From: a virus
IMG/VR virus record: IMGVR_UViG_3300022696_000071
Span: 41,748 to 105,747 of that record
Reading direction: 5' to 3' (one strand)
DNA: 64,000 bases
In this document: piece after piece, positions 14,781-55,922 of the stretch
Position numbering within the stretch: position 1 is the stretch's first letter
How the letters are laid out: every line of letters starts with the position of its first letter
The notes under the pieces: model-generated
Told to the model about the DNA's origin: nothing
Databases searched by the model: none
What the model saw: the letters and a program-made list of their open reading frames with translations, nothing else
Translations under genes and position numbers: made by a program

Positions 14781-15435
14781 TGGTAATAAAGATATTCAAG
14801 ATAGCAATTTTGTTTCAGAAAAAATGGTGGCAATGATTTTTGATCAAGTTAATGCTGTTATTGATAAAATGGCTGGAAGTGTTTCAACTAACACATCTGT
14901 AATAACTGATTTGATTAATACAATTGGTAATGCTCCGAAAGAAACTCTTGAGTTATTAAAATCACAAGAAGGGTTAGCAAAAGATATCTTACATGATCTG
15001 GACAATATAAAAAATGTACTAAAAACAATTGATTCATGCAGTCATACTTTGGAATCAAAACTTGATCCATTAGACAGTATAAAATCTCAAATAGATAAAT
15101 TATATGATAAAATAGAAAAATTAAGAGATATAGAAACATCAATAAATAATATAGTAGATTCTAAAATAGCACCAATCATGCCGATAAAAGATTTACCAAA
15201 AGATATTAAATCTTTAAATGAGAATATGATAAAGAATACTACTAATATAGAAAATCTGGACAAAAAAGCATTTAAATTATCTGTTATATTAGGGGTAGTA
15301 TGTAGTGCTGCTGTCGTAATAGGCGGAATGATGTGGAAGATATTATCAATATTACAATCTCCAGAATTTGCTAAATTATTAGATACGCTACACCAAATAC
15401 ATCACACATTGCCACCTGGAGGTCCTGGTCCATAA
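14737..15435 (+). CDS. coiled-coil protein with a C-terminal transmembrane helix
   Basis: Heptad-like repeats. C-terminal LSVILGVVCSAAVVIGGMMW. Confidence 0.3.
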   Translation: MRFQELNLEIQNMNNGNKDIQDSNFVSEKMVAMIFDQVNAVIDKMAGSVSTNTSVITDLINTIGNAPKETLELLKSQEGLAKDILHDLDNIKNVLKTIDSCSHTLESKLDPLDSIKSQIDKLYDKIEKLRDIETSINNIVDSKIAPIMPIKDLPKDIKSLNENMIKNTTNIENLDKKAFKLSVILGVVCSAAVVIGGMMWKILSILQSPEFAKLLDTLHQIHHTLPPGGPGP

Positions 15436-15464: not shown

Positions 15465-15743
15465 ATGAAACTAACATCATATCCAGAACAAGAATTTAAC
15501 ACGAAAATTGATACAGAATTTTTAAATCAAGCGATATCAAAATATGTAGAAACAGCAAAGATACCAAAATCAGTACCTTTGTCTCAACTTACAAAAAACA
15601 TTAAAAGATATACAGAAGAATCATCTAAGATATTGCAACTTATAGAAAAATCTGAGAAACTTACAAATGAAATAATGTCTAAAAATACACAAATGAATTA
15701 TGAATGTGAAAGAATGATAAATAAAATAAGATCAACTATTTAA
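15465..15743 (+). CDS. hypothetical protein
   Basis: ORF only. Confidence 0.25.
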   Translation: MKLTSYPEQEFNTKIDTEFLNQAISKYVETAKIPKSVPLSQLTKNIKRYTEESSKILQLIEKSEKLTNEIMSKNTQMNYECERMINKIRSTI

Positions 15744-20538: not shown

Positions 20539-21099
20539 ATGAGTGGAATTAAAATAATTAATAAGATTAGAATTATGAAGAAGTTTGGAACGATTGATGC
20601 TTCATTATCTGAAAGATATAAAATAATAGATGTAACATCAAATACACATCATCCATTTATAAAATTTTCTCCATTTTATCCGGATGATGGCCCAATTCCT
20701 GTTCCATTCTGGCCTGGAAAATTCTCAAAAACAGTAGAGGGAGTATGGCAGGGATTAAAAGTATTCAAAGACGATGGTGTAGATGAAAGCAAATTCAAAA
20801 TATCTAATATGAAAAATTTAAAGAGGAAGGGTATACCTCTTGGTCATTTTCGAAATGATACACAATCGTTACTCAATTTATATTTAGCAAGAAAACTTAT
20901 ATATCTTCCATCATATAGATATAAGCTTGAACATTATTTATCTGAAGAAATAAAAATGTTAAAAGATATTGTATTTAATACACCAGTGATACTTCTCGAT
21001 TTTTCAGTTAATGCAAGTCTAACTAATCACAAAGAACCATTATCTCATGCTCAATTAATAAAACATTATTTAGAAAACGAGTGGGAGAGTTTAAGATGA
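20539..21099 (+). CDS. hypothetical protein
   Basis: ORF with SD aaggag. No motif confidently assignable. Confidence 0.3.
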   Translation: MSGIKIINKIRIMKKFGTIDASLSERYKIIDVTSNTHHPFIKFSPFYPDDGPIPVPFWPGKFSKTVEGVWQGLKVFKDDGVDESKFKISNMKNLKRKGIPLGHFRNDTQSLLNLYLARKLIYLPSYRYKLEHYLSEEIKMLKDIVFNTPVILLDFSVNASLTNHKEPLSHAQLIKHYLENEWESLR

Positions 21100-24960: not shown

Positions 24961-26016
24961 TTAAAATTTGAAGTTTATTTTAACTTCCCCGTGCTCGTCG
25001 ATTGTAACACCTTTTTCTTCGAGAGCACGGAATGATGCCACCATGTCGATTGTATTTTGCTCGAATGGCTTCAGCCGCTCAATTTCCTCATTGAGCATAT
25101 CGATTTCAGCATCTTTATTCTCAAGCTCTTCTATTTTCGGCTTAAGTTTTTCAAACGCTTCGAGTTTAGATTCGAGACTACGAACTTGATCTCTATACTT
25201 TGTGATGACTGTATTTAACTGAGCAAGTTCATCGATATATTCAGCATTCTTTTTACGAATGCTTTTTAAACTATTCAACTCTTGCCGAACTTTGATCAGT
25301 TCGCTTTCCATCTTTTCGGCATGGGCCACTTTTCCAAGAAGTCCAATCCCTATAAGTTCAGCAAGCTTGAGATTTTCATTCGATATAAATTTCCCATCTT
25401 CTTCCGATGATTCTTTGACATCATCTTCAGAAATGATGTCAATTTGCTCTTTTGGAATAGATGGTTCGGGTTTAAATTTTTCAAACCCATTATTTTCAAG
25501 CTTCCCAACCATTTTCTCATTATAGAATTTAATCGCTTCTTCGGTTAACACATAGTTGAAAGCTCTACCACTTTGAGTGGTGTCTCCAACTTCAATCATC
25601 CCTTTCTTTCGATAGGTATAAATGACGTTACCGACATGTTTTGAGTTATTAAACCCATCAATATTATGTAACACGTCGATCACGTCGAATTTATCTTCGA
25701 TATCATACGTCTTACATATACGAAAAAACAACTCTTCGTATGTAAGATTCGGTTGAGATTCAGAATCAGAAGAAATTGATTCTTCATCAGTTTCTGAGCT
25801 AATGAAGACGCTTGGATTAGGGCCTTTACCTTGTTTAATCATTTTAATTTTCCCCGACATTTCTGCTTGTCGAAGAAAACCAAAAATGTTATCCGATTTC
25901 TTAAACCCCCTATTCATACCGATTTCATTTATCACAGGCTTTGTTATTTTTTTGTTTGATTGAATTAGTTCAGCCAAAATTTCTTCGAACTGTTTCTTGT
26001 TCATGCTTCTCTCCAT
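24961..26016 (-). CDS. coiled-coil protein with N-terminal HTH-like region
   Basis: Long heptad-repeat C-terminus. Basic helical N-terminus. Confidence 0.3.
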   Translation of the reverse strand: MERSMNKKQFEEILAELIQSNKKITKPVINEIGMNRGFKKSDNIFGFLRQAEMSGKIKMIKQGKGPNPSVFISSETDEESISSDSESQPNLTYEELFFRICKTYDIEDKFDVIDVLHNIDGFNNSKHVGNVIYTYRKKGMIEVGDTTQSGRAFNYVLTEEAIKFYNEKMVGKLENNGFEKFKPEPSIPKEQIDIISEDDVKESSEEDGKFISNENLKLAELIGIGLLGKVAHAEKMESELIKVRQELNSLKSIRKKNAEYIDELAQLNTVITKYRDQVRSLESKLEAFEKLKPKIEELENKDAEIDMLNEEIERLKPFEQNTIDMVASFRALEEKGVTIDEHGEVKINFKF

Positions 26017-26102: not shown

Positions 26103-26639
26103 TTATGTAACAATTGTCATAGTATTAAGATCTAAATAATTTATTTCTTTTTTACATACTAATATATATTTAATACAATTAAATGTTCCACCATTCCGCT
26201 TACCATTCCAAACAGCAAGAGCGATATCTGAATTATTAACGATCCATCTATTTCGTTTGTCCATCTTATAATGTTCATATCCTGGAGAAGAGACATATAC
26301 AATTTTATCACATTGTTTTAATATAGAAAAATATTCTAACTGATGTCTATGTGACCATTTTATTTCTTGACCTTTAAATGGAACAGCAGCTATTAGTTCA
26401 CAATTATATCCATTTTGTTTTAATTTTATAACAGCATTAGCAAACAATTGATCTGCTCCAATTGCCATTCCTGTTATAAAAGATACATCATTATATTTAT
26501 CACACTTATCTTTACACCACTCAATCATCAATTCAAGAATCTTATATTCTATAGAAATATCTTTTTTATTTGTTAAGGACAAACTAAATGGATATAGTTC
26601 TCTATGTCCAGTAACCATACAATTCATATCAACCTCCAT
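26103..26639 (-). CDS. SLOG-fold (DUF1273/YpsA-like) Rossmann-type protein
   Basis: TGHR...GMAIGADQ...AVWNGKRNGGT pattern typical of YpsA/DprA-LOG superfamily members. Confidence 0.35.
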   Translation of the reverse strand: MEVDMNCMVTGHRELYPFSLSLTNKKDISIEYKILELMIEWCKDKCDKYNDVSFITGMAIGADQLFANAVIKLKQNGYNCELIAAVPFKGQEIKWSHRHQLEYFSILKQCDKIVYVSSPGYEHYKMDKRNRWIVNNSDIALAVWNGKRNGGTFNCIKYILVCKKEINYLDLNTMTIVT

Positions 26640-27741: not shown

Positions 27742-28785
27742 CTATATGGAAAACGATTTGGAAGCATGAAACTTCCCATCTTTCTGCCAATCTTTCGTTG
27801 TGAATATCGAAGTATAGAGAATACGGGATCTGATGAATACTGCTTGACCCCGAAACTGCTTATTTTCGATTGTTCTTACTTCGAATTCTTCTCCATCATG
27901 AGTAACAGAATCATCTTTGCTCATGGTGAAATTGTCTTTGATGAATTCACGAACAACCCCTTTCGTTTGATCATCTTCAAACTTGGATGCAGAAATGTAT
28001 TCTCGTTTTAGATCATTAAGAGAATTGATCTTTCGAATATTCAGAGATTTCCGATTGGCGGGTGCTTTCGGAGTTTCACCAAACTTCTTTCTATACTCCA
28101 ACACCAATGATCCATATGCTTCACGTATCAACGGTTTCCAAATTGCTTTGAAATATGCAAAATTTGGTGAACGCTCTATGCCGACAACTGAACCATCCAC
28201 GAGAATAATAGCACCGATTTGATTGTGAACCAATTCGAACTCTGCAACGAATTTATCCAATTCTTCTTCAAATTGGTCCATGTAATCTTCAAGATGCCCT
28301 CTTGCTCTTAACCCAAGTTTGGAATTGAACTTTTCGATTGGTTCCCATAATCGATTATATCCTCGTATATCACGGGTATTTAATGCTGGTTCAAACAGAG
28401 ATTGTGGGAGTATCGAAAGCTTATGTTGTTCGCTTTTAAGATATCCCCCCGTAGATGACTGAATGCAACAAGCAGTCATAACATCTTTCGTTTCTTTTTT
28501 GTTCACCAAAGTAACGTGGGGAATTGCATGATCTTGACCCTGCCTCTTTTCCATATATGCAGAACCAAACGGGACGATTTGGACTTTATCTGATTTGTTC
28601 GTGAATTGAACAAATCCATAGTCCCTCGTTCCTACATATACATCAGTTGGAATAGCGAGATCTCCAAATTGAAGACTTGGATCATCAAGAATTAATGGGA
28701 TAATTTGCATATATCCTACCGATTGAATGCGTCCAGGTCTTAATCCTTTCAGAATGTCTTTTATATTCACATTAACTGTCGTCAT
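27742..28785 (-). CDS. hypothetical protein, likely co-transcribed downstream of the Ro60-like gene
   Basis: 3-nt gap to the upstream gene on the same strand. No recognisable motif. Confidence 0.3.
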   Translation of the reverse strand: MTTVNVNIKDILKGLRPGRIQSVGYMQIIPLILDDPSLQFGDLAIPTDVYVGTRDYGFVQFTNKSDKVQIVPFGSAYMEKRQGQDHAIPHVTLVNKKETKDVMTACCIQSSTGGYLKSEQHKLSILPQSLFEPALNTRDIRGYNRLWEPIEKFNSKLGLRARGHLEDYMDQFEEELDKFVAEFELVHNQIGAIILVDGSVVGIERSPNFAYFKAIWKPLIREAYGSLVLEYRKKFGETPKAPANRKSLNIRKINSLNDLKREYISASKFEDDQTKGVVREFIKDNFTMSKDDSVTHDGEEFEVRTIENKQFRGQAVFIRSRILYTSIFTTKDWQKDGKFHASKSFSI

Positions 28786-28787
28786 AT

Positions 28788-30413
28788 CTATTCACCTCCT
28801 TCAATCATCCCTGAAATATATTTATCATAGATACCAATCAATCCAGCGCATACATCATGTTTCAAAACATCAATAAGTTGACGTTTCACCACATTGGCTG
28901 GATCAAATACGGGTACAGGTACGAGATCATCCGACATTTGACGTACCGATGTCGAGTCATTTGAAGCAACCGGATTCATATGTGAAATCGGAGTTTTATA
29001 TCCGATCTTCTTCAATGCGCGTATGACTTCATTAACTCTTCCAGCGGGAGCATTTTCATATCCATCAGAAATGATGAATATTCCATCATATTCTTCATCT
29101 GATGTAACAATATTCACCAGTGGAGTTGCTATATCCGTATAACCTGTCGGTTTGTTATCGAATCGATACATGTTTCGACCAGATGTCAGAGCAATTGACT
29201 GCTTATTTGATGCTCTCCGTAATACTTCAATCATCGATTGACCAATACAATATGGTTTGAGTGCATTGGTGTCATCACCATATGATGATCGACTATCATC
29301 GAAAACAATTGCGATATTTTCATATGGAACAGATATAGATTCAGCGATTTTTTTCGCTTTTGTTCCAATCGCATTTTTGAGTTCATGGTCAAATCCCATT
29401 TCATGACCATATATGAATAAATCGACAATACCTTGAGCATATGGGTTGAATGAAACAGTCGTACCTGCTTTTGCAGCCGATTTCTGAGTTAACCGTCTCT
29501 CAGTATTTGTCATTGACCGTTTATCTGACGCAACGAGATTCAAGAAATCTTTTCGATTCACTGATTCATGATGATATGTTGCCCATATACCTTCAAGAGT
29601 GGTTTTAGGTAAACCTTTTCCGGCAGCGATATCGTCTTTCGCATCATGGAATTTTTTATGAATCGGTAACTTTCTCCGATCATTACCCAATGAGAAAGAA
29701 ATCGATTCATATAATTTCGGTCTATCTATACCATTAGCAACATGCCTGCCAATAGCAGATTTCAGAATTTCTTTTTCTTTTTGCTCAAGTGTTCTGAAAT
29801 CATCTTTATTGAGTATACCACGAAGCGCATTTGCCATCGATGATCCAACACCATGAGTTATTACTTCACTCATTTTTTTTCGATATTTCACAGATAGAAA
29901 ATCAATACCTTTTTGATTCAGTAACCATCTCAACATATACGAATGCGTTCTTGCGTTATTGATTCTTCTTCCTTTTAAATCATTGACCATGAATCGAAAA
30001 ATTCTTGCCGTATTCTGAATAGACATGGTTGCACGATCAATAATTTTAGTTTCTGTCTTTTGATCCAGAATTGATTCGGGGAATGCTGTCCAATTATTAG
30101 ACAAACATACAAAGATCATTTTCTGAATTGCAAAATCAGTGCATCCACCCATCAAATGAAGCATAGCATAAACACCTCGATCCATGGCGAATACGTCTTT
30201 ATGCACTCTCATAATTTGAGCTTCCATATCTTCTTTATCAAGATAATGGGTTGCTCTCCCGGTAGACACGGCGATAAGATTCATCAAAGAGTTAACCTTG
30301 ATCTGTAGATCAGCCATATCAGTTCTCTCTTTCAACTGATCAAGTCTGCGTTGGAATGCAATTCGTTGTGGTGTTGCCGGAACTGTTTGTTCACGCAGTA
30401 CAATCTCATTCAT
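28788..30413 (-). CDS. Ro60-like protein: alpha-helical TROVE-like N-terminal module plus C-terminal vWA domain with MIDAS
   Basis: 541 aa, the Ro60 size. C-terminal vWA with DxSxS MIDAS (IAIVFDDSRSSYGDDT) and IFIISDGYEN. A tRNA-like RNA lies immediately upstream, the architecture of bacterial rsr/Y-RNA loci. Confidence 0.4.
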   Translation of the reverse strand: MNEIVLREQTVPATPQRIAFQRRLDQLKERTDMADLQIKVNSLMNLIAVSTGRATHYLDKEDMEAQIMRVHKDVFAMDRGVYAMLHLMGGCTDFAIQKMIFVCLSNNWTAFPESILDQKTETKIIDRATMSIQNTARIFRFMVNDLKGRRINNARTHSYMLRWLLNQKGIDFLSVKYRKKMSEVITHGVGSSMANALRGILNKDDFRTLEQKEKEILKSAIGRHVANGIDRPKLYESISFSLGNDRRKLPIHKKFHDAKDDIAAGKGLPKTTLEGIWATYHHESVNRKDFLNLVASDKRSMTNTERRLTQKSAAKAGTTVSFNPYAQGIVDLFIYGHEMGFDHELKNAIGTKAKKIAESISVPYENIAIVFDDSRSSYGDDTNALKPYCIGQSMIEVLRRASNKQSIALTSGRNMYRFDNKPTGYTDIATPLVNIVTSDEEYDGIFIISDGYENAPAGRVNEVIRALKKIGYKTPISHMNPVASNDSTSVRQMSDDLVPVPVFDPANVVKRQLIDVLKHDVCAGLIGIYDKYISGMIEGGE

Positions 30414-39330: not shown

Positions 39331-40713
39331 ATGATAATTTGTCAAATCTGCAACAAAAAATTTGAACGTTTAATTTCTTTAAGTTATCACCTAATTACCC
39401 ATAAAGATATATCTGTAAAAGAGTATTATGATAAATATCTAAAAGAAGATGGTGGTGATTTATGTAAATATTGTAAAAAAGAAAAAACACGATTTAAAAG
39501 TATTATTGTAGGTTATACACCATATTGTAGTAGTGAATGTTGGAGTATGGATAATCATGGTGTGGAATATTATGGATTAACAAAATCTAAAAAGATGTTT
39601 GCAGAAGCATATAAAGGTAAAATTGAATTAAGAGTATTTACTAAAGATGAAAAAACTTGTCAATTATGTGGTAAGCACTTCAATAAAATAATTGGTATAT
39701 CCAAACATTTAAGGGCGTGTGTAAAAAATATTGATCATATAAATACACAACAATATTATGATAAATATTTAAGAAAATCTAAAGATGAAGGTATATGTTT
39801 AAATTGTAAAATAAATAAGACTAAGTTTAGAGGATTACAAATAGGATATGCATCTTTTTGTGGGAAAAAATGTGGAACTGAAGGGAGATTAAAAGGATTT
39901 AAATCAAAAAACACACAACATTGTACAACAAAGATTGATCCAATTAATTGTAAACTATGCGAAAAAGAACTTAGAAATTTAAAATCAATAATAGCACACT
40001 TACGATTCTGCAAACAAAATAATGAAAATTTAAATGCAATAAAATATTATGAAAGATATTTAAGAAAACAAGATGAAGGATATTGTATTATTTGTAATAG
40101 ACCAACAAAACTTAAAAGTATAACAGATGGATACAATAGATACTGTTCACCAAGATGTGGTAATGTAAAAACAGTTGATTATTATAAAGAAAAATATCCA
40201 TTATTTTGTAAAGTAGAAAAAATAAGAAATAATAATAAATATAAAGGACATTGTGGAATACAAGTAAGATGTAAACAATGTAAAAAATGGTTTGTTCCAA
40301 ATAAACACGCTTTAAGTGAACGAATTGGAACCATAGAAGGGTTATCAGAAAAAACTGGATTAATGTCAGAAAATAATTTTTATTGTTCAGATGAATGTAA
40401 ACAATCTTGCTCAGTATTTGGATTAAGATCAGATTCAATGATTTTATCTGATATTCCATATACAGATAACGAACTTTATATATGGCGAAAAGAAGTATTT
40501 AAAAGACAAATAGAAGAAGATAGATATAATAGTTGTGAAATATGTGGAGAAACAACTGATCTACATTGTCATCACGAAAAACCAATTAAAACACACCCCC
40601 ATCTATCATTAGATCCAGATAATGGAATTATTTTATGTAAAGATTGTCATTATAAAAATGGTCATACTGGAAAATGTTCTACTAAACATATAGCACATAA
40701 AATATGCTATTAA
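39331..40713 (+). CDS. free-standing HNH homing endonuclease with N-terminal array of C2H2-like fingers and Cys4 zinc ribbons
   Basis: C-terminal HNH CEICGETTDLHCHHEKPIKTHPHLSLDPDNGIILCKDCH. Four repeats of C2H2-like finger + YYDKYL + CxxCxK...YCSxxC, the same ribbon type as in the portal inteins. Confidence 0.55.
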   Translation: MIICQICNKKFERLISLSYHLITHKDISVKEYYDKYLKEDGGDLCKYCKKEKTRFKSIIVGYTPYCSSECWSMDNHGVEYYGLTKSKKMFAEAYKGKIELRVFTKDEKTCQLCGKHFNKIIGISKHLRACVKNIDHINTQQYYDKYLRKSKDEGICLNCKINKTKFRGLQIGYASFCGKKCGTEGRLKGFKSKNTQHCTTKIDPINCKLCEKELRNLKSIIAHLRFCKQNNENLNAIKYYERYLRKQDEGYCIICNRPTKLKSITDGYNRYCSPRCGNVKTVDYYKEKYPLFCKVEKIRNNNKYKGHCGIQVRCKQCKKWFVPNKHALSERIGTIEGLSEKTGLMSENNFYCSDECKQSCSVFGLRSDSMILSDIPYTDNELYIWRKEVFKRQIEEDRYNSCEICGETTDLHCHHEKPIKTHPHLSLDPDNGIILCKDCHYKNGHTGKCSTKHIAHKICY

Positions 40714-41439: not shown

Positions 41440-41850
41440 ATGAAAAGAGTATTATTATTTTCAACATTAGCATTAATTTTATTATTAACATACAACGTTT
41501 GTATAGCATTAACGGGCGGTGAATATATCAGAATTGAAAAAGGTTTCTTCTTTGAAATGGATGGTAGATATTACTATTTTCCACAAGAAATAGAAATTGA
41601 TCAAACTGCATTTTGGGAAACTGGTGGGTATGAAGGCGAAGATCCTAATGGAGATGATACAGATCCACCCCCTCCGCCACCTCCGCCTCCACAACCAACA
41701 CCATCTAAAGATAATGCATTTAATTCATGTATGACGTGTCATAGCGATAAAGACGAAGCTAAATTCAAATTCGAAAATTGGAAAACTACACTTCATACAA
41801 AACATCGTGAGAAAAAAATAGAATGCATTAAATGTCATAAGCTTGATTAA
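41440..41850 (+). CDS. small secreted Pro-rich protein with two CxxCH haem-c-type motifs (dihaem cytochrome c-like)
   Basis: Signal peptide MKRVLLFSTLALILLLTYNVCIA. PPPPPPPPPQP linker. CMTCH and CIKCH 33 residues apart. Confidence 0.35.
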   Translation: MKRVLLFSTLALILLLTYNVCIALTGGEYIRIEKGFFFEMDGRYYYFPQEIEIDQTAFWETGGYEGEDPNGDDTDPPPPPPPPPQPTPSKDNAFNSCMTCHSDKDEAKFKFENWKTTLHTKHREKKIECIKCHKLD

Positions 41851-44767: not shown

Positions 44768-45544
44768 ATGGAAACCATATATATTACAAGGAGAAAACTT
44801 ATGTCTGCAAATAGTTTTGCACCCATTAACAATAACCGATTTTCACGAAGATGGGGTGCATCCGGTGGTGATGCAGTTGATCCATATGTAAACGGTTATA
44901 TGTTTGTTCACTTTGCTGGTCTTCCGTCAAAGTTATCTGAAAATATAACTTTGGCTGGTGGAAATCATCAATTAAGTCAAAGTGAAATCACGCAAGCTCT
45001 TCATGCAACATGTCTTGCCGTAACAATGCCGGGTGGCACAATGAATCGGGCAGAATTTCAAGGACTTGGTGGTGTCAAGTGGGCAGTTCCGACAAATGCT
45101 GATTATGACAACACAGTTACTTTGAAATTCTTAGAATTTTCTACACTCCCACTATATGCAATTATTCATGGGTGGTTCAGAATGATTCGTGATTATCGGG
45201 CTGGTGTTTCGAACTTAGTTGGTGGAGAAGGCGAATATACAAGAAGTAATTATTCTGCTACCATGTATTACTGGACAACCAAACCAGATGGTAAGCTTGT
45301 CGAATATTACGCTTGTTTAACAGGTCTTTATCCACTCAAAGATCCCGCTGATCTCTATGGAGCAGATCTCACCACATATGATAAACTCGAAATGGATATT
45401 GATTTCAATGTTGACTATGTGTGGCATGAAGATTGGGTAAGAACAAAATGTCAAGACTTGTCTGATCAACAAGTTCATAGTGATCTTGCAACTGTGGAGG
45501 CTTATAGAGATGAATCTGGTTCCGGTCAAGGTGGGGGTCAGTAA
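44768..45544 (+). CDS. putative tail tube protein
   Basis: Position immediately after the sheath gene. Beta-rich composition. No diagnostic motif, so synteny-based only. Confidence 0.35.
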   Translation: METIYITRRKLMSANSFAPINNNRFSRRWGASGGDAVDPYVNGYMFVHFAGLPSKLSENITLAGGNHQLSQSEITQALHATCLAVTMPGGTMNRAEFQGLGGVKWAVPTNADYDNTVTLKFLEFSTLPLYAIIHGWFRMIRDYRAGVSNLVGGEGEYTRSNYSATMYYWTTKPDGKLVEYYACLTGLYPLKDPADLYGADLTTYDKLEMDIDFNVDYVWHEDWVRTKCQDLSDQQVHSDLATVEAYRDESGSGQGGGQ

Positions 45545-47621: not shown

Positions 47622-48053
47622 ATGGCAATAGCATCGGGCGTAGAAGAATTTATAAGAACAATACCAGGACAAAGAACAACAATTAAAGATGTAGATTCTA
47701 TAATTGATTTCTCTGGTGATTTTAGAAAGCTATATGATATTGATGTAATAATAAAAAGTATAACCAATCTATTTCTTATATCAAAAGAAACTTACTTCAT
47801 GGACCCGAATGTCGGAACTAATTTATATAGATATATTTTTGAACCAGCAGATATTGCCACTAAATCTCAATTAGAACAGGAGATATCTGTTGCATTATCT
47901 GCATATATGTATAACGATGTTGATATAGAATATGATATTGTATTCTTTAATAACAAGAAGGGATTCAAGATAAATTTTGAGATATCATATAAAGGAAAGA
48001 AAAAAACAAGATCAGTAACTATAAACGAACAGTTACTTACTACTATACAATAA
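47622..48053 (+). CDS. baseplate wedge protein, gp25/gpW-like
   Basis: 143 aa. FMDPNVGTNLYRYIFEP resembles the (R/N)P-FG-L-lf-E signature of the gp25/GPW family. Confidence 0.45.
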   Translation: MAIASGVEEFIRTIPGQRTTIKDVDSIIDFSGDFRKLYDIDVIIKSITNLFLISKETYFMDPNVGTNLYRYIFEPADIATKSQLEQEISVALSAYMYNDVDIEYDIVFFNNKKGFKINFEISYKGKKKTRSVTINEQLLTTIQ

Positions 48054-48063
48054 TTTACAAAAA

Positions 48064-48161
48064 ATATTAATCGGCACGTTTCGTGATCGATTATGGCGGG
48101 ATGCCGATTAATATTTTTTTGTGTGGAGACTGTTAGTTACTCATCGTAACAGTCTCCACAC
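48064..48161. terminator. two adjacent long perfect hairpins (14-bp and 15-bp stems) between convergent genes
   Basis: AATATTAATCGGCA-24nt-TGCCGATTAATATT-T7, then GTGTGGAGACTGTTA-11nt-TAACAGTCTCCACAC. The second arm pair includes the last codons of the minus-strand gene. Confidence 0.55.
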
Positions 48162-48601
48162 ACTCCATCGAAGATATTATTGCGGGCTGCCCCGCAATTG
48201 GGGCAGGGGAATCTTGTTTTCCCCCACCTTTTCTCCCATGGAGTCCCTTCATTCTCGACGATCTCTCTACCATCGAGAATGAGATCTCTAATCTTATTTA
48301 GAGTCTCAGTTGATGCGATAGGACCAAGCGGCCCTTCGCACCACGGAGAGTTAGCTATAATCACTAACATCTCCGAATCCGTATATCTCTGGAATATACG
48401 GATGTATGTTTCGTTGCCGACATCGCCGTTTTCACTTACGGCGACAACCGGCCCTACGGTTACAAACATGCGCCCTGCGGCATCATGTCCGTATCCGACG
48501 ACCGGATTTAAAAAATCGTCTAAATATTCAGTTGGCCCAATAACTTCGGGCCGGATTTCAGACAGTCCCAGCGACTTAACAAATTTCAAAATAGCTTGCA
48601 T
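48137..48601 (-). CDS. hypothetical protein with C-terminal CxxC...CxxC zinc ribbon; strongly GC-enriched relative to the genome
   Basis: Coding region visibly ~50% GC in a ~28% GC background. CPNCGAARNNIFDGVCGDCYDE at the C-terminus. Confidence 0.4.
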   Translation of the reverse strand: MQAILKFVKSLGLSEIRPEVIGPTEYLDDFLNPVVGYGHDAAGRMFVTVGPVVAVSENGDVGNETYIRIFQRYTDSEMLVIIANSPWCEGPLGPIASTETLNKIRDLILDGREIVENEGTPWEKRWGKTRFPCPNCGAARNNIFDGVCGDCYDE

Positions 48602-48965
48602 GATTCATCTCCTTTGTTAAATGGTTAATGGTTATCTATTAATATATATATATAATCAACTATCACGATTATTAACCATATTTTTATATTTATAATGACA
48701 TAAATAAAAGAATATGATTTGAAAAATAATATAGTAAACGATACAATGATCAGTATATATTGTAACCGCTTCCAATGGATTAGAAGATATCAAATATATA
48801 TGATTATATTTTAATTTTAATGTTATATTACCATTAACGAATGATATTATAATTATAACAAAACCAAATTGTGAAATCCAAAGTAGATTCTTTCATAATA
48901 ATAAAAACCCCCAAAAGAAGAAAATTAAAAAAGGAATATTATATAATTTAATATATATAAATATC

Positions 48966-51353
48966 ATGGATATAATCGAAGATATAGAATCAAAAAATTA
49001 TTGTAGATATTTACATAAAAAAGATTTTGAGTGTAAAAAAGATTGTGATGTAAGAAATTGTGAAGCTATAACATATGTAACAAACAGATTAAAAGAAATA
49101 TTAGATAATTCAATTGATGTTATATTAAGAATAAATATTGATAATAATAAATTTAATTATATTAACTCAACATGTTTAAAATTATTTGGTTATACAAAAG
49201 ATGAATTTATCGATAATGGTTTTAGTTGGGCGTTTTCGTTAATACATGAAGATGATAGAGCAGATTTTATAACAACTATAAATTATATGAAAAAAAATAC
49301 ATGCGTCCAGTTTAGATTTAAACATAAAACTCTTGGATACAGATGGATTGCTGGTAATATAACAATTGTGGAAAAAAATAAAAAAGGAGATACTATAGTA
49401 ACATGTTATTGTAGAGATATAACAAATGAAATAACTTATAATGATATAATGAGAGAAAGCAGAAGAAAATTTAGATCACTATATGATAACTTACCAGATA
49501 TGTCTACTTCTTCAAATAATGATGGTATTATTATAATGTGTAATGATACATTGTTATCTAAAACTGGATATAGTAGAAAAGAAATAGTTGGAATGCATAT
49601 ATATAAATTGTATCATTCATGTTGTATAGAAAAGGTTAAAAAAATATTTACTCATTATTTAGAAACTGGATCTATAAAAAATGAACGGTTAGTAATAAAA
49701 ACAAAAACAAATGATAAAATATATGTAGGAGTAAATATAAATGCAGTTAGAGATGATAATAATAATATACTACACTCTATAGCAACATATATAGATATAA
49801 CAAAACAAATAGAGAATGAAAGAGCTTTATCTGAAATGGAGCATAAATTTAAAGCTATATTGGAACAATCGCCAATATCTCACGAATTATATGATCGAAA
49901 CGGATTACAAGTTAAAGTAAATGCTGCATATGAGAGATTATGGGGGATAGATAAAAAATATACTTTAAATAAACTTAATATAAAAACAGATAGACAAGTA
50001 AAAGAAATAGGTCATGATAAATATGTAAATAAAGCATATATAGACAAAGTACCAATTGATATTCCAGACTATAAATGGGATCCTAGTAAATCTGGATTCC
50101 CAGGCCGAATAAGATGGTTGCATACACGTATATTTCCAATAACAAATGAATTCGATGAAGTTATACATGTTGTAGTAACACATGAAGATATAACCAATAG
50201 AAAAAACGCAGAAAGAACAATTATTGAAAATCATAGATTGGGAGCAATTGGAGAAATGGCTTCATCAGTTGCCCATGATTTTAATAATTCTCTACAAATA
50301 ATATTAGGAAATATAGAATTAGCAAAAAGAAAATCTGAAGAATGTTCATATAAACATCGTCCAATATGTTTAAAATATTTAGAAAGATCAAGAATAGCAG
50401 CAGAGAATACATCAAATAGAATAAAAATATTGCAAAAATTTGGAAGAGTAGATGATAAATATAATATAAGTGAAATAATAGATATTAATTCTCTAATAGA
50501 TGATGTTATAGATGAATCAAAACCATTATTTAAAAACATGCCTCACAGATCTGGAAACGAAATAATAATAAAAAAACAATATACAAATAAAAATGTAAAT
50601 GTATCTGGAAACAGTGGTGAATTAAAAGCGGTATTATTTAATGTATTAAAAAATAGTATGGAAGCAATGCCATCTGGTGGATATATTGTAATATCTACAG
50701 AGAATAAAAAAGATCATGTATATATTTACATAACTGATACTGGAACTGGAATAACTGAAGATTTAATATTAAAGATATTTCAACCATTCTTTTCTACTAA
50801 AAGTTTGGGTATGAATAGAGGGTTAGGGTTAAGTGGGTCATATAATATAATAAACGAACATGGTGGTTACATAAGAGTAAAAGATAGTTCAACCGGAGAA
50901 GGTACAACTATGGAGATAAAACTACCAGAATCGGAAAATGGAATAGTTAAAAAAAAGAGAATAAAAAAAATGGGTAATGAAAAAATATTAAAAATGTTAT
51001 GGGTAGATGACGATGAGATGATAACAGATTTTGCTATAGAATTTATGGAAATATATGGATATGAAGGAGATGTTGTAAATGATAGCGAATACGCTATAGA
51101 ATATATTCAAAGTAAAAATTATGATATCGTAATGACTGATATGGGTATGCCTAACATGAATGGGGTAGAGTTATCAAAAGAGATAAGAAAAAAAGTTGGA
51201 GACAAAGTTAAAATAATAATGTTTACTGGATGGGGAATGACATACGATGAATATGAAAAAAATAAACATATAATAGATCATATAGTTCAAAAACCAGCAG
51301 AAATAAATCATCTAAATGAAATTATAAATAAAGTTATGCAAATTAAAAATTAA
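48966..51353 (+). CDS. cytoplasmic hybrid sensor histidine kinase: Cys-rich N-terminus, PAS-like repeats, HisKA, HATPase_c and C-terminal receiver domain
   Basis: H-box RLGAIGEMASSVAHDFNNSLQ. N-box LFNVLKNSMEAM. G1 ITDTGTGI. F IFQPFFST. G2 GLGLSGS. Receiver MLWVDDD...DIVMTDMGMPNMNG...MFTGWG...VQKP. No TM segments. Confidence 0.65.
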   Translation: MDIIEDIESKNYCRYLHKKDFECKKDCDVRNCEAITYVTNRLKEILDNSIDVILRINIDNNKFNYINSTCLKLFGYTKDEFIDNGFSWAFSLIHEDDRADFITTINYMKKNTCVQFRFKHKTLGYRWIAGNITIVEKNKKGDTIVTCYCRDITNEITYNDIMRESRRKFRSLYDNLPDMSTSSNNDGIIIMCNDTLLSKTGYSRKEIVGMHIYKLYHSCCIEKVKKIFTHYLETGSIKNERLVIKTKTNDKIYVGVNINAVRDDNNNILHSIATYIDITKQIENERALSEMEHKFKAILEQSPISHELYDRNGLQVKVNAAYERLWGIDKKYTLNKLNIKTDRQVKEIGHDKYVNKAYIDKVPIDIPDYKWDPSKSGFPGRIRWLHTRIFPITNEFDEVIHVVVTHEDITNRKNAERTIIENHRLGAIGEMASSVAHDFNNSLQIILGNIELAKRKSEECSYKHRPICLKYLERSRIAAENTSNRIKILQKFGRVDDKYNISEIIDINSLIDDVIDESKPLFKNMPHRSGNEIIIKKQYTNKNVNVSGNSGELKAVLFNVLKNSMEAMPSGGYIVISTENKKDHVYIYITDTGTGITEDLILKIFQPFFSTKSLGMNRGLGLSGSYNIINEHGGYIRVKDSSTGEGTTMEIKLPESENGIVKKKRIKKMGNEKILKMLWVDDDEMITDFAIEFMEIYGYEGDVVNDSEYAIEYIQSKNYDIVMTDMGMPNMNGVELSKEIRKKVGDKVKIIMFTGWGMTYDEYEKNKHIIDHIVQKPAEINHLNEIINKVMQIKN

Positions 51354-51362
51354 CATATATTA

Positions 51363-51378
51363 AGGACAAATTTTAAAC
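51363..51378 (+). promoter_or_regulatory. late-promoter-like motif AGGACAAATTTTAAAC
   Basis: Motif family member upstream of the gene at 51409. Confidence 0.4.
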
Positions 51379-51408
51379 ACTAATACTTAACTAAAAGGAG
51401 ATATTATT

Positions 51409-51993
51409 ATGTACATCAGTGAGACTTACACCAATGATACGTTAAATGAAGATTTTTTTAGAGGAGCTTCTGGTGAAATCTTAAGAAGTCCAAAGCAAAT
51501 GGGAAATGTATTTAAATCTATAGGTGACTTATTTTCTAATGCTCAATCTCTAATGAAAAGAGTTGATAGTATGACAAGTCAAATAAAACATGATATTGAA
51601 CGTAAAATATTTCATGGTTCGACTATAGGTGGGTATATTAAGTGGAGACAGACTACAATATATTGGAGAATGTATTACTTATTAGATGATAAGGCATATA
51701 ATAAAATTCTAAATGATGCAAAATCAGGATCTCTTGATAAGAAATTTTTCGATTTTAAACTTACATCCAGAAATGTACCGATGATTACACAGGCAAGATC
51801 GAAAGAAGAACTTATTAGAGCTGTAGATCTATACAGAGATCGTGCATATAATTTGTATTCAATACTTTTAAAATGGAGAAGAGAAAATAATGAAGAGATG
51901 GTAAACATATTAACCCATTATTTAAGAATAATAAACGCAGGTCTTTATGATATGTCAGAAGTTATTAATATTATAATTGACTATAGTAGATAA
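51409..51993 (+). CDS. hypothetical protein
   Basis: ORF with SD aaggag. Confidence 0.3.
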   Translation: MYISETYTNDTLNEDFFRGASGEILRSPKQMGNVFKSIGDLFSNAQSLMKRVDSMTSQIKHDIERKIFHGSTIGGYIKWRQTTIYWRMYYLLDDKAYNKILNDAKSGSLDKKFFDFKLTSRNVPMITQARSKEELIRAVDLYRDRAYNLYSILLKWRRENNEEMVNILTHYLRIINAGLYDMSEVINIIIDYSR

Positions 51994-52041
51994 TAATTAA
52001 TAAAAATTTTTATACAATATAAGATATTTAAATATCTTATA

Positions 52042-52629
52042 TTGTATAAAATAATAAATTATAATTTTATTTTAATACAGGAAATAATGAATATGTTTAT
52101 ATCTGAAGACTTTATTGATGATAAAGCAAATGATGCAGCAACTTCACCAAAAAATGATTTGTCTGAACCATCTGAAAAACAAAAGAAATATGGTAATTAT
52201 AAAAAGGGCCATATATCATTTAAAGGAATAAACATAGCTATAGAGAATCCAAAAGGATCAAAGAGAAAGGGAGTAGATCCCGATGGTAATGCTTGGGAAT
52301 CTACACTTCATTCACATTATGGTTATGTAAAAGGTGGAGTTGAAGGAAAAGACGGTGATCCTGTTGACGTTTATGTTGGACCAAATCATGATAGTGATAT
52401 TGTATGCATAATAAATCAAGCAAATATAAAAGATGGTTCGTTTGATGAACATAAAGTAGCTCTTGGATACTCTACATTTCCAGATGCAATAAATGGTTAT
52501 TTAAAAAATTATGATAAAGATTGGGAAAGAAAAGGTGGAATAAGATCAGCATATAGAATTACCATAGATCAATTCAAAAATTGGTTAAGAAATGGTAATA
52601 CTAAAAGAGAATTTAAAGGTGTGTTATAA
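52042..52629 (+). CDS. hypothetical protein
   Basis: ORF only. Confidence 0.25.
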   Translation: MYKIINYNFILIQEIMNMFISEDFIDDKANDAATSPKNDLSEPSEKQKKYGNYKKGHISFKGINIAIENPKGSKRKGVDPDGNAWESTLHSHYGYVKGGVEGKDGDPVDVYVGPNHDSDIVCIINQANIKDGSFDEHKVALGYSTFPDAINGYLKNYDKDWERKGGIRSAYRITIDQFKNWLRNGNTKREFKGVL

Positions 52630-53292
52630 ATGGAAAATATCCCTATATCATATGCATATATAAGAGATTATTATCATACACTATATAGTATATATGGAGA
52701 CTACTATGTAGGTTATCCATTAACCTACTATAGTATTGATTGGGAAAATAGTATATATGATGAAAAATTAACTGCTGGAACTTATGAGAAAATAGGAGTA
52801 GGTGATTTATCTGGAATGAAATGGAAAAAGATATTACATTTTCCAGTTTATGCGGTTGAACAAATACAACCTGAATATAATGCATCTGAAAAAGGATTAG
52901 TGTTAGAAACTTCTGAAATATCAAGTATTTCATTTTCAAGTAACTTTGGGTTAAAACCATTTGAGTGGGATATAATAGAATTTCAACAAGATTTCATGTT
53001 TAAAGATCGAGATGTAAATGATCAACCGTTATTTCATATATCTAATATAACATTATCAATGTATGGGAGTTTAAAACATTGGAAATGTAAAATTAATGTA
53101 TCTCCGGTTAGTAAAGTCCAATTAGATCAGCAAGTAACATCATATTGGGTATTTCTACAACATACTAAAAAAATACATAATAATGATACAGCATCTCTGT
53201 TAATAAAATTACACAAAAAACTTGGTCTATTAAAAACAAATACAAATAACCTATTTCATAATTCTGGATTCTATCTAACCAATGTCGCCTAA
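52630..53292 (+). CDS. hypothetical protein
   Basis: ORF abutting the upstream stop. Confidence 0.25.
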   Translation: MENIPISYAYIRDYYHTLYSIYGDYYVGYPLTYYSIDWENSIYDEKLTAGTYEKIGVGDLSGMKWKKILHFPVYAVEQIQPEYNASEKGLVLETSEISSISFSSNFGLKPFEWDIIEFQQDFMFKDRDVNDQPLFHISNITLSMYGSLKHWKCKINVSPVSKVQLDQQVTSYWVFLQHTKKIHNNDTASLLIKLHKKLGLLKTNTNNLFHNSGFYLTNVA

Positions 53293-53306: not shown

Positions 53307-55922
53307 GTGTTTGAAGAAAATACTATAACAATATATAGCTCAAGAGATAAGATTAGAAATGAGTTAATTACATTAGCAAAAGAATATTTAGAATTAGATG
53401 GTATTGATTTCAATAAGTTATCTTATATGAGTTATCTGATAAATGTTTTAAGTGGATTAACTGCAAATTTATTATATTATTCTACATCTACATATAAAGA
53501 ATTCTTTTTAACAAGAGCTATACAAAAAGAAAGTGTATTAAATCTTGCAGCTATGATTGGCTATTCTCCACCATATGCAACACCTGCTCAAGTATCATTA
53601 TTAATTGGAATACCAATAACTTTTGAAACTTTGGAATCACAAGGGAATTCATTAGTAATTGAATTTCCACAATATCACCAATATAGAGCTGGAGATACTA
53701 TATTCTCACAAGATAACAAAGTAACAGTTACAATAACTAATAATTCTGGAATATTAGCTTATTCAGTTATTGAAGAAATAACATCTAATACTGGAACGAA
53801 TTATAGAGTTTTACCAAAAACAACTTCAGTCGTAAATAACACAAATACTTTATATTTCACAATAAATGCAACTCAAATAGAAAAACAAGAACTTGAATAT
53901 CAAATCCAAAAACAACAACCGTATGAGTTTTATGTAATAAATTTAGAATTTGTCGGGCAGTTATCGAACATTGAGACAATAACTACTGAAGATGAGGGCG
54001 GAACTGAACAAGAATGGACACTATATGATTCACTTTTCTTAATACCATCTGGCGAATATGGTTATGCATTTAGACGAACTAGTACTGGTGGACAATTAAT
54101 GTTTGGAAATGGAATTATTGGTCAAAAAGCACCAGAAGATGAAAAGTGCATTATAACAATTGATTCCACTATTGGTGCCAGTGGCAATGTCATAGCTGGT
54201 TCTATAAATAAAGGGGCAACAATATATATAATAGATGATGAAATACCAAGACAATTAAATTATTCTGTTCTTAATGTTGAGCCAGCATATAACGGTGCTG
54301 ACTCACAAACTATAAGTGAGATAAAAGCATCTGCAATAGCAAATTTATCATCACTGAATAGACTCGTATCACAATACGATTATGACAATATATCAGATGT
54401 AATAGATGATTTACCATTAACAAATCCATCACATATAATGAAAAGAAGTGATATAAAAAGAAATGAAATAGTATTATTTTCAAATATATTATATAGTGAT
54501 TCTATAGTTCCAACCAGAAATACAGTTTGGACGCTCAGTGAAGCAACTACGCCATCATTAAGTATATATATGAGTGATACTATAACAATAAATAGTGTTG
54601 ATTATTATAGTATGTTTAATATAGATATAGATGCAGATGAAGAAACTGCAACTTATTATTATTTAGCATTATCATCTGAAAATTCTGTCGTTATAAATAA
54701 AACATATAGTATTGAACAAGGCAGTCCTCCAGAAACACTTGTTCTCCCAACAACATGTAATATGGATTTAACAATTCATGATGGTGGGGGCAATGTATTG
54801 GATAAAGCTGATCAAAAACTAACTGTTCAATTAAATTATGATATTGTTGATGCATCTTGTGATGAAGCCGATTTAAATTGTTATATAGAAACTGAATGGA
54901 ATGGATCAGTAAGTCAGATGACAAAAGAAACTGGATATCTCGAATATGATTTTGATCTTCAAGATATTCCCGATGGTGAGCAATCTTTCTATTTTAAAAT
55001 GTATAGATTGATAGATAATCCAGATTATGGTCAACCAGGAGAACCAACGCATATACCTCAATATTTTAATGAATCACAATTAGACATAATAATCAAACAA
55101 GATATAAGTGATTACATGTACAGTAATATTGTAGTAACTGGATCATCCCCTAATAGAACAATTACTATATATGATGTTCCTGTAATAAAGAAAGCATATT
55201 ATGATTCTGTCGATGCAGATAATTTTAAATTATTAGTTTATAATAAAATAATAAGTGTCAATATGGCATCATATAGGATGGCTACTGACTTTATAAATAT
55301 AAAATTTACAAATACTACTGGTCAATTAACTAATATGAGATTAAATAAAGTAACAAAAAATAATGTTATTGATATTAACCCATCTGCAATACCATCATCT
55401 CCAAATGCAGAAGATAGATATATAATAACAAATGATGAAAATCCATTTTCTGTTGATCCAGGCATTATAGTCGAATATGACGAACAGGGAGATACTTGGG
55501 TAGAATATAGTATGAGTATAAATGATATTATATATGTAGAAAATCTTAGCAAAAAAGTTATATATAATGGTGAAGTCGTAATTGACCCCGTAAAATCTAT
55601 ACCCCTCGTCGTATCAGCAACTGTATGGAAAGATCCATCTTATACAAATGCTACAGAAGAAGGTTTAATATCAAATATAAAAGAAGCTATAATTGATGGA
55701 TTATATAGTTATTTTGGAGCAGATAAGCCATTATATATTTCTCAAATAACTGAAATAATACAGGGAGTAACGGGTATACAACATTGTAAAGTAGTTAATC
55801 CAAAACATGATATTTTCTTCAATTATGATATACATGAAGATCTTACACAACAGGAATTAATCGAATATACACCAGATTTAGTCTGGTTTGACACAACAAT
55901 GATAAGTATAACTCTACGTTAA
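53307..55922 (+). CDS. baseplate wedge protein, gp6/baseplate-J-like
   Basis: 871 aa. N-terminal region SYMSYLINVLSGLTANLLYYSTSTYKEFFLTRA...AAMIGYSPPYATPAQ resembles the Baseplate_J family core. Confidence 0.45.
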   Translation: MFEENTITIYSSRDKIRNELITLAKEYLELDGIDFNKLSYMSYLINVLSGLTANLLYYSTSTYKEFFLTRAIQKESVLNLAAMIGYSPPYATPAQVSLLIGIPITFETLESQGNSLVIEFPQYHQYRAGDTIFSQDNKVTVTITNNSGILAYSVIEEITSNTGTNYRVLPKTTSVVNNTNTLYFTINATQIEKQELEYQIQKQQPYEFYVINLEFVGQLSNIETITTEDEGGTEQEWTLYDSLFLIPSGEYGYAFRRTSTGGQLMFGNGIIGQKAPEDEKCIITIDSTIGASGNVIAGSINKGATIYIIDDEIPRQLNYSVLNVEPAYNGADSQTISEIKASAIANLSSLNRLVSQYDYDNISDVIDDLPLTNPSHIMKRSDIKRNEIVLFSNILYSDSIVPTRNTVWTLSEATTPSLSIYMSDTITINSVDYYSMFNIDIDADEETATYYYLALSSENSVVINKTYSIEQGSPPETLVLPTTCNMDLTIHDGGGNVLDKADQKLTVQLNYDIVDASCDEADLNCYIETEWNGSVSQMTKETGYLEYDFDLQDIPDGEQSFYFKMYRLIDNPDYGQPGEPTHIPQYFNESQLDIIIKQDISDYMYSNIVVTGSSPNRTITIYDVPVIKKAYYDSVDADNFKLLVYNKIISVNMASYRMATDFINIKFTNTTGQLTNMRLNKVTKNNVIDINPSAIPSSPNAEDRYIITNDENPFSVDPGIIVEYDEQGDTWVEYSMSINDIIYVENLSKKVIYNGEVVIDPVKSIPLVVSATVWKDPSYTNATEEGLISNIKEAIIDGLYSYFGADKPLYISQITEIIQGVTGIQHCKVVNPKHDIFFNYDIHEDLTQQELIEYTPDLVWFDTTMISITLR

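Follow-up and report, generated by a model that had tools for sequence, protein, structure and literature searches.

A soluble PAS hybrid histidine kinase encoded within the baseplate gene cluster of an uncultured jumbo myophage

Domain architecture of the kinase

Two proteins of the two-component signalling type are encoded in a 64,000-nucleotide stretch of the IMG/VR virus record IMGVR_UViG_3300022696_000071 (positions 41,748 to 105,747 of the record; hereinafter, the window). These are a soluble hybrid sensor histidine kinase of 795 amino acids (48966–51353) and an orphan response regulator of 207 amino acids (14157–14780); coordinates are those of the window, and genes and protein features are on the plus strand unless stated otherwise. 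Both open reading frames (ORFs) lie exactly where a preliminary description, made from the DNA letters alone, had placed them. As assembled from the ORF list, Pfam matches, an alignment with 11 homologues, fold matches, and hydropathy, the kinase comprises a Cys-rich N-terminus followed by three PAS domains, the dimerization and histidine phosphotransfer (DHp) domain, the catalytic ATP-binding (CA) domain, and a receiver.

The N-terminal cluster of four cysteines (C13, C23, C27, and C32; 49002–49061) is lineage-specific according to the sequence, the alignment, and the Cys counts: of the 13 Cys residues of the kinase, 11 fall within its first 220 positions, and the homologues have 3–7. PAS-A spans approximately residues 40–142 (49083–49391), represented by Pfam PAS_8 (40–98) and PAS_3 (65–142). 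PAS-B (residues 168–281; 49467–49808) is recognized by PAS_9 (E 6.8e-24) and PAS (E 2.4e-23) and contains the best stretch of TIGR00229 (163–288). PAS-C, whose boundaries are approximate (about residues 292–412; 49839–50201), corresponds to the third of the three stretches found on the kinase by each of the models PF00989 (Pfam PAS) and TIGR00229 and is also indicated by the PAS–DHp–CA match to ThkA (297–651). Overall, the E-values of the PAS-family models of Pfam range from 1e-21 to 7e-24. What may point to redox or ligand sensing, proposed in the preliminary description, is just the presence of the PAS domains and of cysteines which are not conserved.

The H-box region of the DHp domain (50250–50342) harbors the phospho-acceptor His437 in the motif SVAHDFNNSLQ (codon 50274–50276). 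It is matched by HisKA (residues 429–459, E 5e-4, 20.4 bits vs. a gathering score of 26.9 bits), and the segment I428–N441 is almost wholly invariant in the alignment, with H437 of the AHDFNN H-box identical in all 12 sequences. The CA domain (50613–50933), identified by HATPase_c at residues 550–656 (E 6.5e-21, 75.3 bits vs. a cut-off of 26.4), carries in the canonical order the N-box (N559/N563), G1-box (D591/G593/G595), F-box (F609), and G2-box (G619/L620), all of them invariant among the same 12 sequences. The fused receiver (50997–51326; Response_reg at residues 678–787, E 2e-18, 67 bits vs. 30.2) has retained D681, D682, the phospho-acceptor D725, and K776, likewise invariant in the alignment, and matches TrrA (chain 3a0r_B). 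The closest solved chains to the whole kinase are those of ThkA with its regulator TrrA (3A0R), YF1/FixL, KinB, and CckA. Hence, judging by its sequence, the protein is a class I hybrid histidine kinase with predicted activity. The complete catalytic core with a fused receiver, which had been noticed from the letters, was borne out by the Pfam models for HATPase_c, Response_reg, and PAS and, below the gathering score, for HisKA.

No transmembrane segment was found in the kinase, its 19-residue hydropathy peaking at 0.72. The lack of a hydrophobic segment suggests that it is a cytoplasmic protein, in agreement with the earlier assignment of a cytoplasmic PAS kinase. It scores below every equivalog cut-off of NCBIfam (e.g., PRK13557, 193 vs. 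631; AtoS, 178 vs. 646; CckA, 161 vs. 1000), and the sole NCBIfam model it passes is the PAS S-box domain, TIGR00229 (140 vs. 22.9). Since these scores are so far below the cut-offs, the kinase is not an orthologue of a named protein such as CckA, AtoS, ArcB, or TorS. A role in a defence system was considered as well and rejected, as neither the kinase nor either of the flanking ORFs has a match in PADLOC-DB.

An insertion in the baseplate cluster of a jumbo phage

The window is phage DNA. Its genes include those of a DnaB-like helicase, a portal with inteins, a prohead protease, the major capsid protein, and a tail-fibre-like protein with an Mtd_N domain, as well as the sheath, tube, baseplate hub, gp25-like and gp6-like baseplate wedge proteins, an endolysin, a lysozyme-domain protein of 1921 amino acids, and two tRNAs; its GC content is about 28% throughout. 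The gene order is syntenic with that of IMG/VR phages on contigs reaching 223–275 kb, and the sheath and capsid relatives in IMG/VR, several of them on contigs of this size, are 46–71% identical. The proteins of the window are recorded on a contig of 201,166 bp. The nearest cultured capsids are those of the jumbo phages AR9/PBS1 and vB_StaM_SA1, at 22–24% identity only. The genome thus belongs to an uncultured lineage of jumbo myophages, and the phage identity of the contig, on which the earlier reading depended, is upheld by its structural genes and synteny.

The kinase gene is the central part of a block of about 4 kb (48054–52041) situated between a gp25-like baseplate wedge gene (47622–48053; phrog_261, phrog_43, GPW_gp25 with E 1.2e-4) and a gene with an InPase domain (52042–52629; PF18823, E 3.2e-47). 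The gp6-like wedge gene (53307–55922; phrog_219, E 1.2e-15), 41–43% identical in the relatives, follows further downstream, so the placement of the kinase between the gp25-like and gp6-like genes, supported by PHROGs and Pfam, is accurate with three ORFs (51409–51993, 52042–52629, and 52630–53292) intervening before the latter. In four related phages (L002–L005), the gp25-like gene is followed by the homologues of the InPase-domain gene and of 52630–53292 and by the gp6-like gene, the gap between the first two genes being 9–12 nt in L002–L004 and 472 nt in L005. A fifth relative (L007) lacks the homologue of the InPase-domain gene and has the 52630 homologue directly after the gp25-like gene, the remaining order being the same. 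None of the three ORFs of the block was found in these five syntenic relatives; therefore, the block represents a lineage-specific insertion, as was expected from its description as a moron in the tail module. The deviating composition regarded as a trait of morons is displayed here by a single ORF (48137–48601), while the GC content, the GC content at third codon positions (GC3), and the codons of the kinase are phage-typical.

This deviating ORF (48137–48601, minus strand) encodes 154 amino acids with a C-terminal CxxC…CxxC zinc ribbon and is preceded by a strong Shine–Dalgarno sequence. In composition, it deviates more than any other ORF of the window (GC 47.5% and GC3 47% vs. about 28% and 15%), with no match in Pfam, PHROGs, PDB, PADLOC, or NCBIfam, and it was probably acquired separately from the kinase or more recently. 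Between it and the kinase gene lies an AT-rich divergent intergenic region of 364 bp (48602–48965), presumed to be the promoter region of the kinase transcription unit; sigma-70 promoter-like sites did not exceed the shuffled expectation (43 vs. 46.1), a pattern scan of this kind being uninformative in AT-rich DNA. The third ORF (51409–51993, 194 amino acids, strong Shine–Dalgarno sequence) begins 55 nt 3′ of the kinase gene and is probably co-transcribed with it. This is an ORFan: among 5.8 billion proteins it has no homologue but itself, and no Pfam, PHROG, or PDB match was obtained; it was also considered as a candidate Hpt protein, for which the library scans gave no match.

Both edges of the insertion are marked by inverted repeats. 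At the left edge, two adjacent perfect hairpins (48059–48162), one with 18-nt arms (48059–48076/48102–48119) and the other with 16-nt arms (48120–48135/48147–48162), are probably terminators acting in both directions, placed where the gp25-like gene and ORF 48137–48601 converge. At the right edge, the hairpin scan revealed a perfect AT-rich palindrome of 44 nt (52008–52051). The real start of the InPase-domain gene next to it is probably near codon 17, since the homologues align from residues 17–19. With a minimum arm length of 14 nt, just seven perfect hairpins are found in the 64 kb, and three of the seven are at the edges of the insertion, which fits the notion of the kinase block as an autonomous transcription unit. 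As for the other four, those at 8232, 27684, and 45633 are intergenic, and one is located within the receiver gene (14227–14262).

The possibility that the kinase was brought into the record by an assembly chimera or by misjoined bacterial DNA was also considered. No support for it was found, the sole compositional anomaly being the neighbouring ORF 48137–48601. On the contrary, the block has phage baseplate genes to its left and right, arranged as in the five relatives, the composition of the kinase gene is that of the phage, and the kinase occurs on two distinct contigs, one of 201 kb and the other of 83 kb. As the sibling contig, the flanking synteny, and the composition agree with each other, the chimera is regarded as excluded, its residual probability being negligible, and the reservation made at the outset that the contig might be chimeric bacterial DNA can be dropped.

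Bacterial ancestry, viral counterparts, and the case for a maintained kinase

The nearest homologues of the kinase (P0002–P0004) are 30–35% identical to it over 91–95% of its length and belong to bacterial orphan hybrid kinases. Of the three homologue loci whose genomic contexts were read, two are bacterial, one with nitrite reductase, radical SAM, and T9SS-tailed protease genes (L001) and one with cytochrome bd, GlyRS, and ABC transporter genes (L163), and the third is mixed (L164); no adjacent cognate regulator or Hpt was found at any of them. The bacterial orphan PAS hybrid kinases with the AHDFNN H-box, annotated as “PAS domain S-box protein” or CckA-like, share with the phage kinase the PAS(n)–DHp–CA–REC order (REC, receiver), the catalytic boxes, and the D-D-D-K residues of the receiver, and their solved relatives are ThkA–TrrA (PDB 3A0R) and CckA (5IDJ). 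The phage protein differs from them by being virus-encoded, by its phage codon usage, and by its unique Cys-rich N-terminus (13 Cys vs. 3–7). The Por_Secre_tail context of the homologue P0003 had pointed to a host among the Bacteroidota; this possibility was considered and set aside, the hint being weakened by the strong AGGAG Shine–Dalgarno sequences of most genes of the phage.

With a GC content of 25.5%, a GC3 of 12.6%, and a codon index of 0.79, the kinase gene is in the middle of the distribution for the phage, and the same holds for the receiver gene. The 83-kb sibling contig carries the kinase with a single substitution (H527N) together with identical copies of the receiver gene and of the ORFan. 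Taken together, the phage-typical codons, the nearest identity of 30–35%, and the sibling copy suggest an old and maintained acquisition from bacterial orphan hybrid kinases. It is therefore rather probable that the protein is an auxiliary regulatory kinase of a jumbo myophage, anciently captured from the bacterial orphan “PAS S-box” hybrid kinases and kept as a unit insulated by hairpins.

Alternatively, the captured bacterial gene could be a functionless passenger, neutral or decaying. The confinement of the kinase to this phage and its near-identical sibling, with no copy in the relatives, and the missing Shine–Dalgarno sequence are compatible with this idea, but the 795-codon ORF is fully open, all of its catalytic residues are intact at a nearest identity as low as 30–35%, and its codon usage is completely phage-adapted; the last suggests a long residence without decay. 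Hence, a passenger gene appears to be very unlikely.

Several observations weigh against a maintained and active kinase of ancient bacterial origin. The HisKA score is under the gathering threshold of Pfam, though the H-box itself is invariant; many homologues likewise show a weak HisKA or none in their precomputed Pfam lists, so the phage protein matches the pattern of its family. The N-terminal Cys cluster is shared with no homologue. No close relatives of the kinase were retrieved by peptide patterns from IMG/VR, and the JGI metagenome contigs yielded distant kinases only. The ATG of the kinase gene lacks an upstream Shine–Dalgarno sequence, which is present in 32 of the 55 genes surveyed, making the start of the kinase or its level of translation uncertain. 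Finally, an Hpt protein or a cognate regulator may be encoded beyond the 64-kb window, in a genome that spans no less than 201 kb, which would favour a relay closed within the phage (see below). As a separate observation, the Shine–Dalgarno sequence is missing upstream of both signalling genes (48941–48965 and 14132–14156) and present upstream of both other ORFs of the insertion; this may reflect a low translation of the signalling genes or another mode of initiation.

Two-component proteins were said in the preliminary description to be very uncommon in tailed phages. This is true of cultured phages: a search of 50,697 GenBank phage records with the kinase returned 11 weak matches, several of them to bacterial contigs and most of the others to unannotated gut-metagenome contigs, and matches so few and so weak indicate that cultured phages are essentially devoid of such kinase genes. 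Of the GenBank “phage” records matching the kinase or the receiver (H1, H2, H36, H39, and H42), several are whole-genome contigs of Salmonella enterica of up to 501 kb; because of these, matches from this collection need checking before they are called phage. Nevertheless, related proteins are already represented in PHROGs, on 88 IMG/VR contigs, in BFVD, and in the published cases of phoR/phoB and agrC. Four PHROGs v4 families match the kinase (phrog_5982 with E 2e-64, phrog_10912, phrog_20458, and phrog_857), all of them annotated as function-unknown, and BFVD contains receiver and kinase proteins from phages and from many giant viruses.

A scan of IMG/VR with the H-box pattern revealed related kinases on at least 88 contigs. 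Among the 80 loci fetched, 74 encode hybrid kinases, 16 come from contigs exceeding 150 kb, the largest of which reach 500 kb, and in about 13 a stand-alone receiver of 120–165 amino acids is encoded within 10 kb. The distinction between a true phage gene and a prophage flank was checked for two of these loci (L019 and L051 of L019–L098): the L051 kinase adjoins portal and capsid genes, and the L019 kinase lies between the genes of an NAD-dependent DNA ligase and an RNA ligase. Additionally, one IMG/VR contig of 250 kb has two hybrid kinases of the AHDFNN type (L027 and L064). The best viral relative of the kinase (L019/L020) is 28% identical to it, i.e., more distant than the bacterial homologues, suggesting that the kinase was captured independently of these viral kinases. 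The IMG/VR and PHROGs hybrid kinases likewise combine a kinase core with a receiver on viral contigs and differ from the kinase described here in sequence, and the locus is a well-defined addition to a recorded but unstudied class, not a new class.

Two-component genes have been listed as a category of viral auxiliary genes (PMC9636769), and soil phage contigs with phoR and phoB, in which the ATP-binding motifs are conserved, have been described (PMC10987575). In these cases, too, a kinase and a regulator are carried by a virus and proposed to act on host regulators (PMC10987575; PMC9636769), but the phage kinases of the PhoR type are membrane proteins with a defined regulon, whereas the kinase of the window is a soluble triple-PAS hybrid and the accompanying regulator has no DNA-binding domain. 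The AgrC-like kinase of phiCDHM1, a myophage of Clostridioides difficile (PMC3901668), is also of bacterial origin, has no identified cognate regulator in the phage, and was proposed to participate in host signalling. Unlike the present kinase with its PAS domains, receiver, and phage-like composition, it is a HATPase_c-only quorum-sensing kinase of the membrane, encoded in an agr cassette of deviating GC content in a temperate phage. The phaeoviruses EsV-1 and FirrV-1 and other giant eukaryotic viruses encode several hybrid kinases as well (cited in PMC12993054), for which sensing of the host or of the environment has been proposed, one of the EsV-1 kinases being reported in the virion; these viruses have eukaryotic hosts and represent unrelated lineages. 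In a comparative review of 224 jumbo phages, a divergent cREC receiver is the sole receiver mentioned (PMC7824862), and a survey of huge phages makes no mention of two-component proteins.

The receiver protein and the possible routes of the signal

The second signalling gene (14157–14780) is situated in the head module, downstream of the portal and prohead protease genes and between a tail-fibre-like gene (10846–14124) and the major capsid gene (16283–17737). Its product has a Response_reg domain at residues 9–124 (E 2.5e-19, 69.9 bits vs. 30.2) with conserved active-site residues D14, D59, T93, and K115. In an AlphaFold2 (AF2) model built with a 40-sequence alignment (mean predicted confidence, pLDDT, of 91.9), which was used instead of the single-sequence model (pLDDT 40), the receiver displays five strands and five helices, and the helices 119–159 (a continuation of alpha-5) and 164–200 form a hairpin. 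The Pfam matches, the conserved active site, and the neighbouring genes thus confirm the free CheY-like receiver of the head module, and its supposed coiled-coil output is seen in the model as a helical one. No DNA-binding, RNA-binding, or enzymatic output was detected, Response_reg being the sole Pfam match at E ≤ 0.01, and there was no match to cREC_REC (PF20274). In the small homologues P0126 and P0204, the cREC matches are well under their own Response_reg scores; one (31.6 bits) passes the cut-off of 27 bits and the other (24.5 bits) does not.

According to Foldseek, the structural neighbours of the protein are the receiver–linker parts of PorX, NtrC1, RssB, and EutV (E about 1e-9 to 1e-11), which have the same (beta–alpha)5 receiver with alpha-5 running into a long helix. 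After this helix, PorX, RssB, NtrC1, and EutV carry a PglZ, PP2C, AAA+, or ANTAR domain, whereas the phage protein ends at the two-helix hairpin; the EutV and PorX matches do not reach into the output domain. An ANTAR-type regulator, suggested by the EutV match, was rejected, since the protein has just two C-terminal helices and no ANTAR domain. Its closest sequence relatives (32–38% identity) are internal receivers of bacterial REC–REC–PAS–sigma54 and REC–REC–PAS–kinase proteins, along with a handful of receiver-plus-helical-tail proteins of about 190 amino acids. No close relatives were found in IMG/VR, in the related phages, or by the word-indexed search, and the species-representative genomes yielded just receiver domains of 31–38% identity.

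The 3′ end of the receiver gene is overlapped by 44 nt by the start of a gene (14737–15435) coding for a coiled-coil protein of 232 amino acids with a C-terminal transmembrane helix (hydropathy maximum of 2.35 at residue 181). Like the receiver gene, it is absent from the related phages, and the libraries returned solely weak coiled-coil-type matches for its product; in a PADLOC scan of both proteins, the matches were weak and of receiver or coiled-coil type only. The coiled-coil protein may be a partner of the receiver protein.

The preliminary description had proposed that the kinase and the receiver protein constitute a phosphorelay. In such a closed circuit, the receiver protein would be phosphorylated from His437 or via an Hpt encoded elsewhere and would time development or lysis through its hairpin, acting, e.g., on the product of 14737–15435. 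Both genes are lineage-specific additions to one genome, they code for the only receiver-containing ORFs of the window, and they occur together on both sibling contigs. As neither gene was found in any other genome, this joint occurrence is uninformative with respect to pairing. The overlap with the gene of the transmembrane coiled-coil protein and the proximity of viral hybrid kinases to a small stand-alone receiver, frequent in the IMG/VR sample (about 13 of 80 loci), are also in line with this proposal. However, the two genes are 34 kb apart and belong to different modules, and no Hpt/HPTransfase or other two-component domain was revealed in the window, where the Pfam scan covered most ORFs of at least 100 amino acids plus 15465–15743, leaving the ORFs below 100 amino acids mostly unscanned, and seven further genes have PHROGs assignments only. 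Moreover, the identity between the receiver protein and the receiver fused to the kinase is 27%. The alpha-1 helix of the former, KEDICKTYKEILE, fits the N-terminal receivers of REC–PAS–kinase and REC–PAS–sigma54 proteins and deviates from the xMIRDxAxExLE consensus of the receivers attached to the kinase subfamily. This mismatch, a weak piece of evidence by itself, speaks against recognition of both receivers by the same DHp, and the bacterial proteins most similar to the kinase are themselves orphans, with no partner encoded next to them. Hence, the phosphorelay of the preliminary description was not substantiated: a relay from the phage kinase to the phage receiver is possible but unsupported, and a closed one seems unlikely.

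A related jumbo phage (L009, 15265–15657; identical in L016) was found to possess a stand-alone receiver of 130 amino acids in an auxiliary gene block. Its capsid is 64% identical, the two contigs measure 275 and 152 kb, and no kinase of the AHDFNN type was found on the contig. This receiver is 40% identical over 83 residues to that of the kinase, and its alpha-1 matches the consensus of the kinase subfamily. A special kinship of the two was nevertheless rejected, as the domain scores, taken in a biased set of 214, place the kinase no higher than 6th. The presence of the stand-alone receiver in L009/L016 suggests that receiver genes come and go in this lineage.

A more elaborate version of the phage-owned circuit can also be envisaged, in which the kinase would read the redox or energy state of the cell and signal, directly or via an Hpt encoded elsewhere, to the receiver-hairpin protein and further to the product of 14737–15435, timing late development or lysis. 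In a variant of this scheme, suggested by the position of the gene in the baseplate cluster, the kinase would be packaged and injected, as has been reported of a hybrid kinase of EsV-1. This scheme is speculative and has a low probability; if true, it would represent a virus-owned two-component pathway controlling the lytic programme of a jumbo phage.

Another option is interference with host signalling in the course of host takeover, in place of sensing on behalf of the phage. The kinase could operate mainly as a phosphatase, a phosphate sink, or a mimic that mis-phosphorylates Hpt proteins or regulators of the host, and the receiver-hairpin protein as a decoy titrating host kinases or forming dead-end coiled coils with REC–PAS signalling proteins of the host. 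As a member of a bacterial subfamily, the kinase would recognize bacterial partners; the receiver protein resembles the detached N-terminal receiver and linker helix of multidomain bacterial sensors; and, according to PMC10714779, the protein PIT4 of Pseudomonas phage LSL4 targets host two-component systems. At the same time, all motifs for ATP binding and autophosphorylation, which a pure sink or phosphatase would not need, have been kept, and the retention of three PAS domains argues for a regulated activity. Overall, interference is rather unlikely as the main function of the locus.

Under the preferred interpretation of the kinase as an auxiliary regulator of the jumbo phage, the protein would be made in the infected cell, where a signal arising inside the cell would be detected or bound by its PAS domains and, possibly, by the Cys-rich N-terminus. 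Autophosphorylation of the DHp/CA core at His437 would be followed by transfer of the phosphoryl group to Asp725 of the same protein. The signal would next, most probably, enter the two-component network of the host via a host Hpt or response regulator, which is proposed as the exit because the window encodes no Hpt. The receiver protein would represent another signalling module, acquired independently, whose input could come from host kinases or, with a lower probability, from the kinase of the phage. It would have to act by protein–protein contact, since the hairpin is its only output.

If the kinase is active, a jumbo phage of the lytic type has an intracellular sensor of its own and could adjust the infection or the host signalling to the conditions in the cell. 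So far, viral decision-making of this kind has been demonstrated chiefly with quorum-sensing receptors and arbitrium peptides. The locus offers a clean test case: the kinase is a single soluble protein whose motifs are intact, the insertion is defined and its flanks are undamaged, and a confident model is available for the candidate partner. Hybrid kinases are found repeatedly on large viral contigs, frequently close to a small stand-alone receiver, and have not yet been the subject of a study; the locus could also represent this whole class.

Several other features were noticed in the window. The portal-like protein (3473–8218, 1581 amino acids), homologous to the portals of the relatives, contains interrupting intein elements, namely, two stretches of Intein_splicing (E 8.7e-37) across residues 472–942, an HNH_3 endonuclease, and PT-HINT at 1036–1103. 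There are two free-standing HNH homing endonuclease genes, one of them immediately 3′ of the capsid gene, and an accessory block on the minus strand encoding a YpsA-type SLOG protein, an ARPP-1/ARPP-2 protein, and a DUF6939 protein (endonuclease and accessory genes at 17987–19864, 39331–40713, 26103–26639, 27742–28785, and 20539–21099).

A gene adjoining that of the endolysin (41440–41850, 136 amino acids) codes for a protein with a signal peptide, nine consecutive prolines, and two haem-binding motifs (CxxCH). Its matches to multihaem cytochromes c are weak and under the cut-off, and it could be a small dihaem cytochrome destined for secretion or, alternatively, a protein of the spanin type. 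The GC3 is raised to 26–36% (vs. 10–20% elsewhere) in the genes of the capsid (16283–17737) and the tube (44768–45544) and in three minus-strand genes (24961–26016 and 27742–30413), suggesting that a high GC3 may mark high expression in this phage instead of foreign origin.

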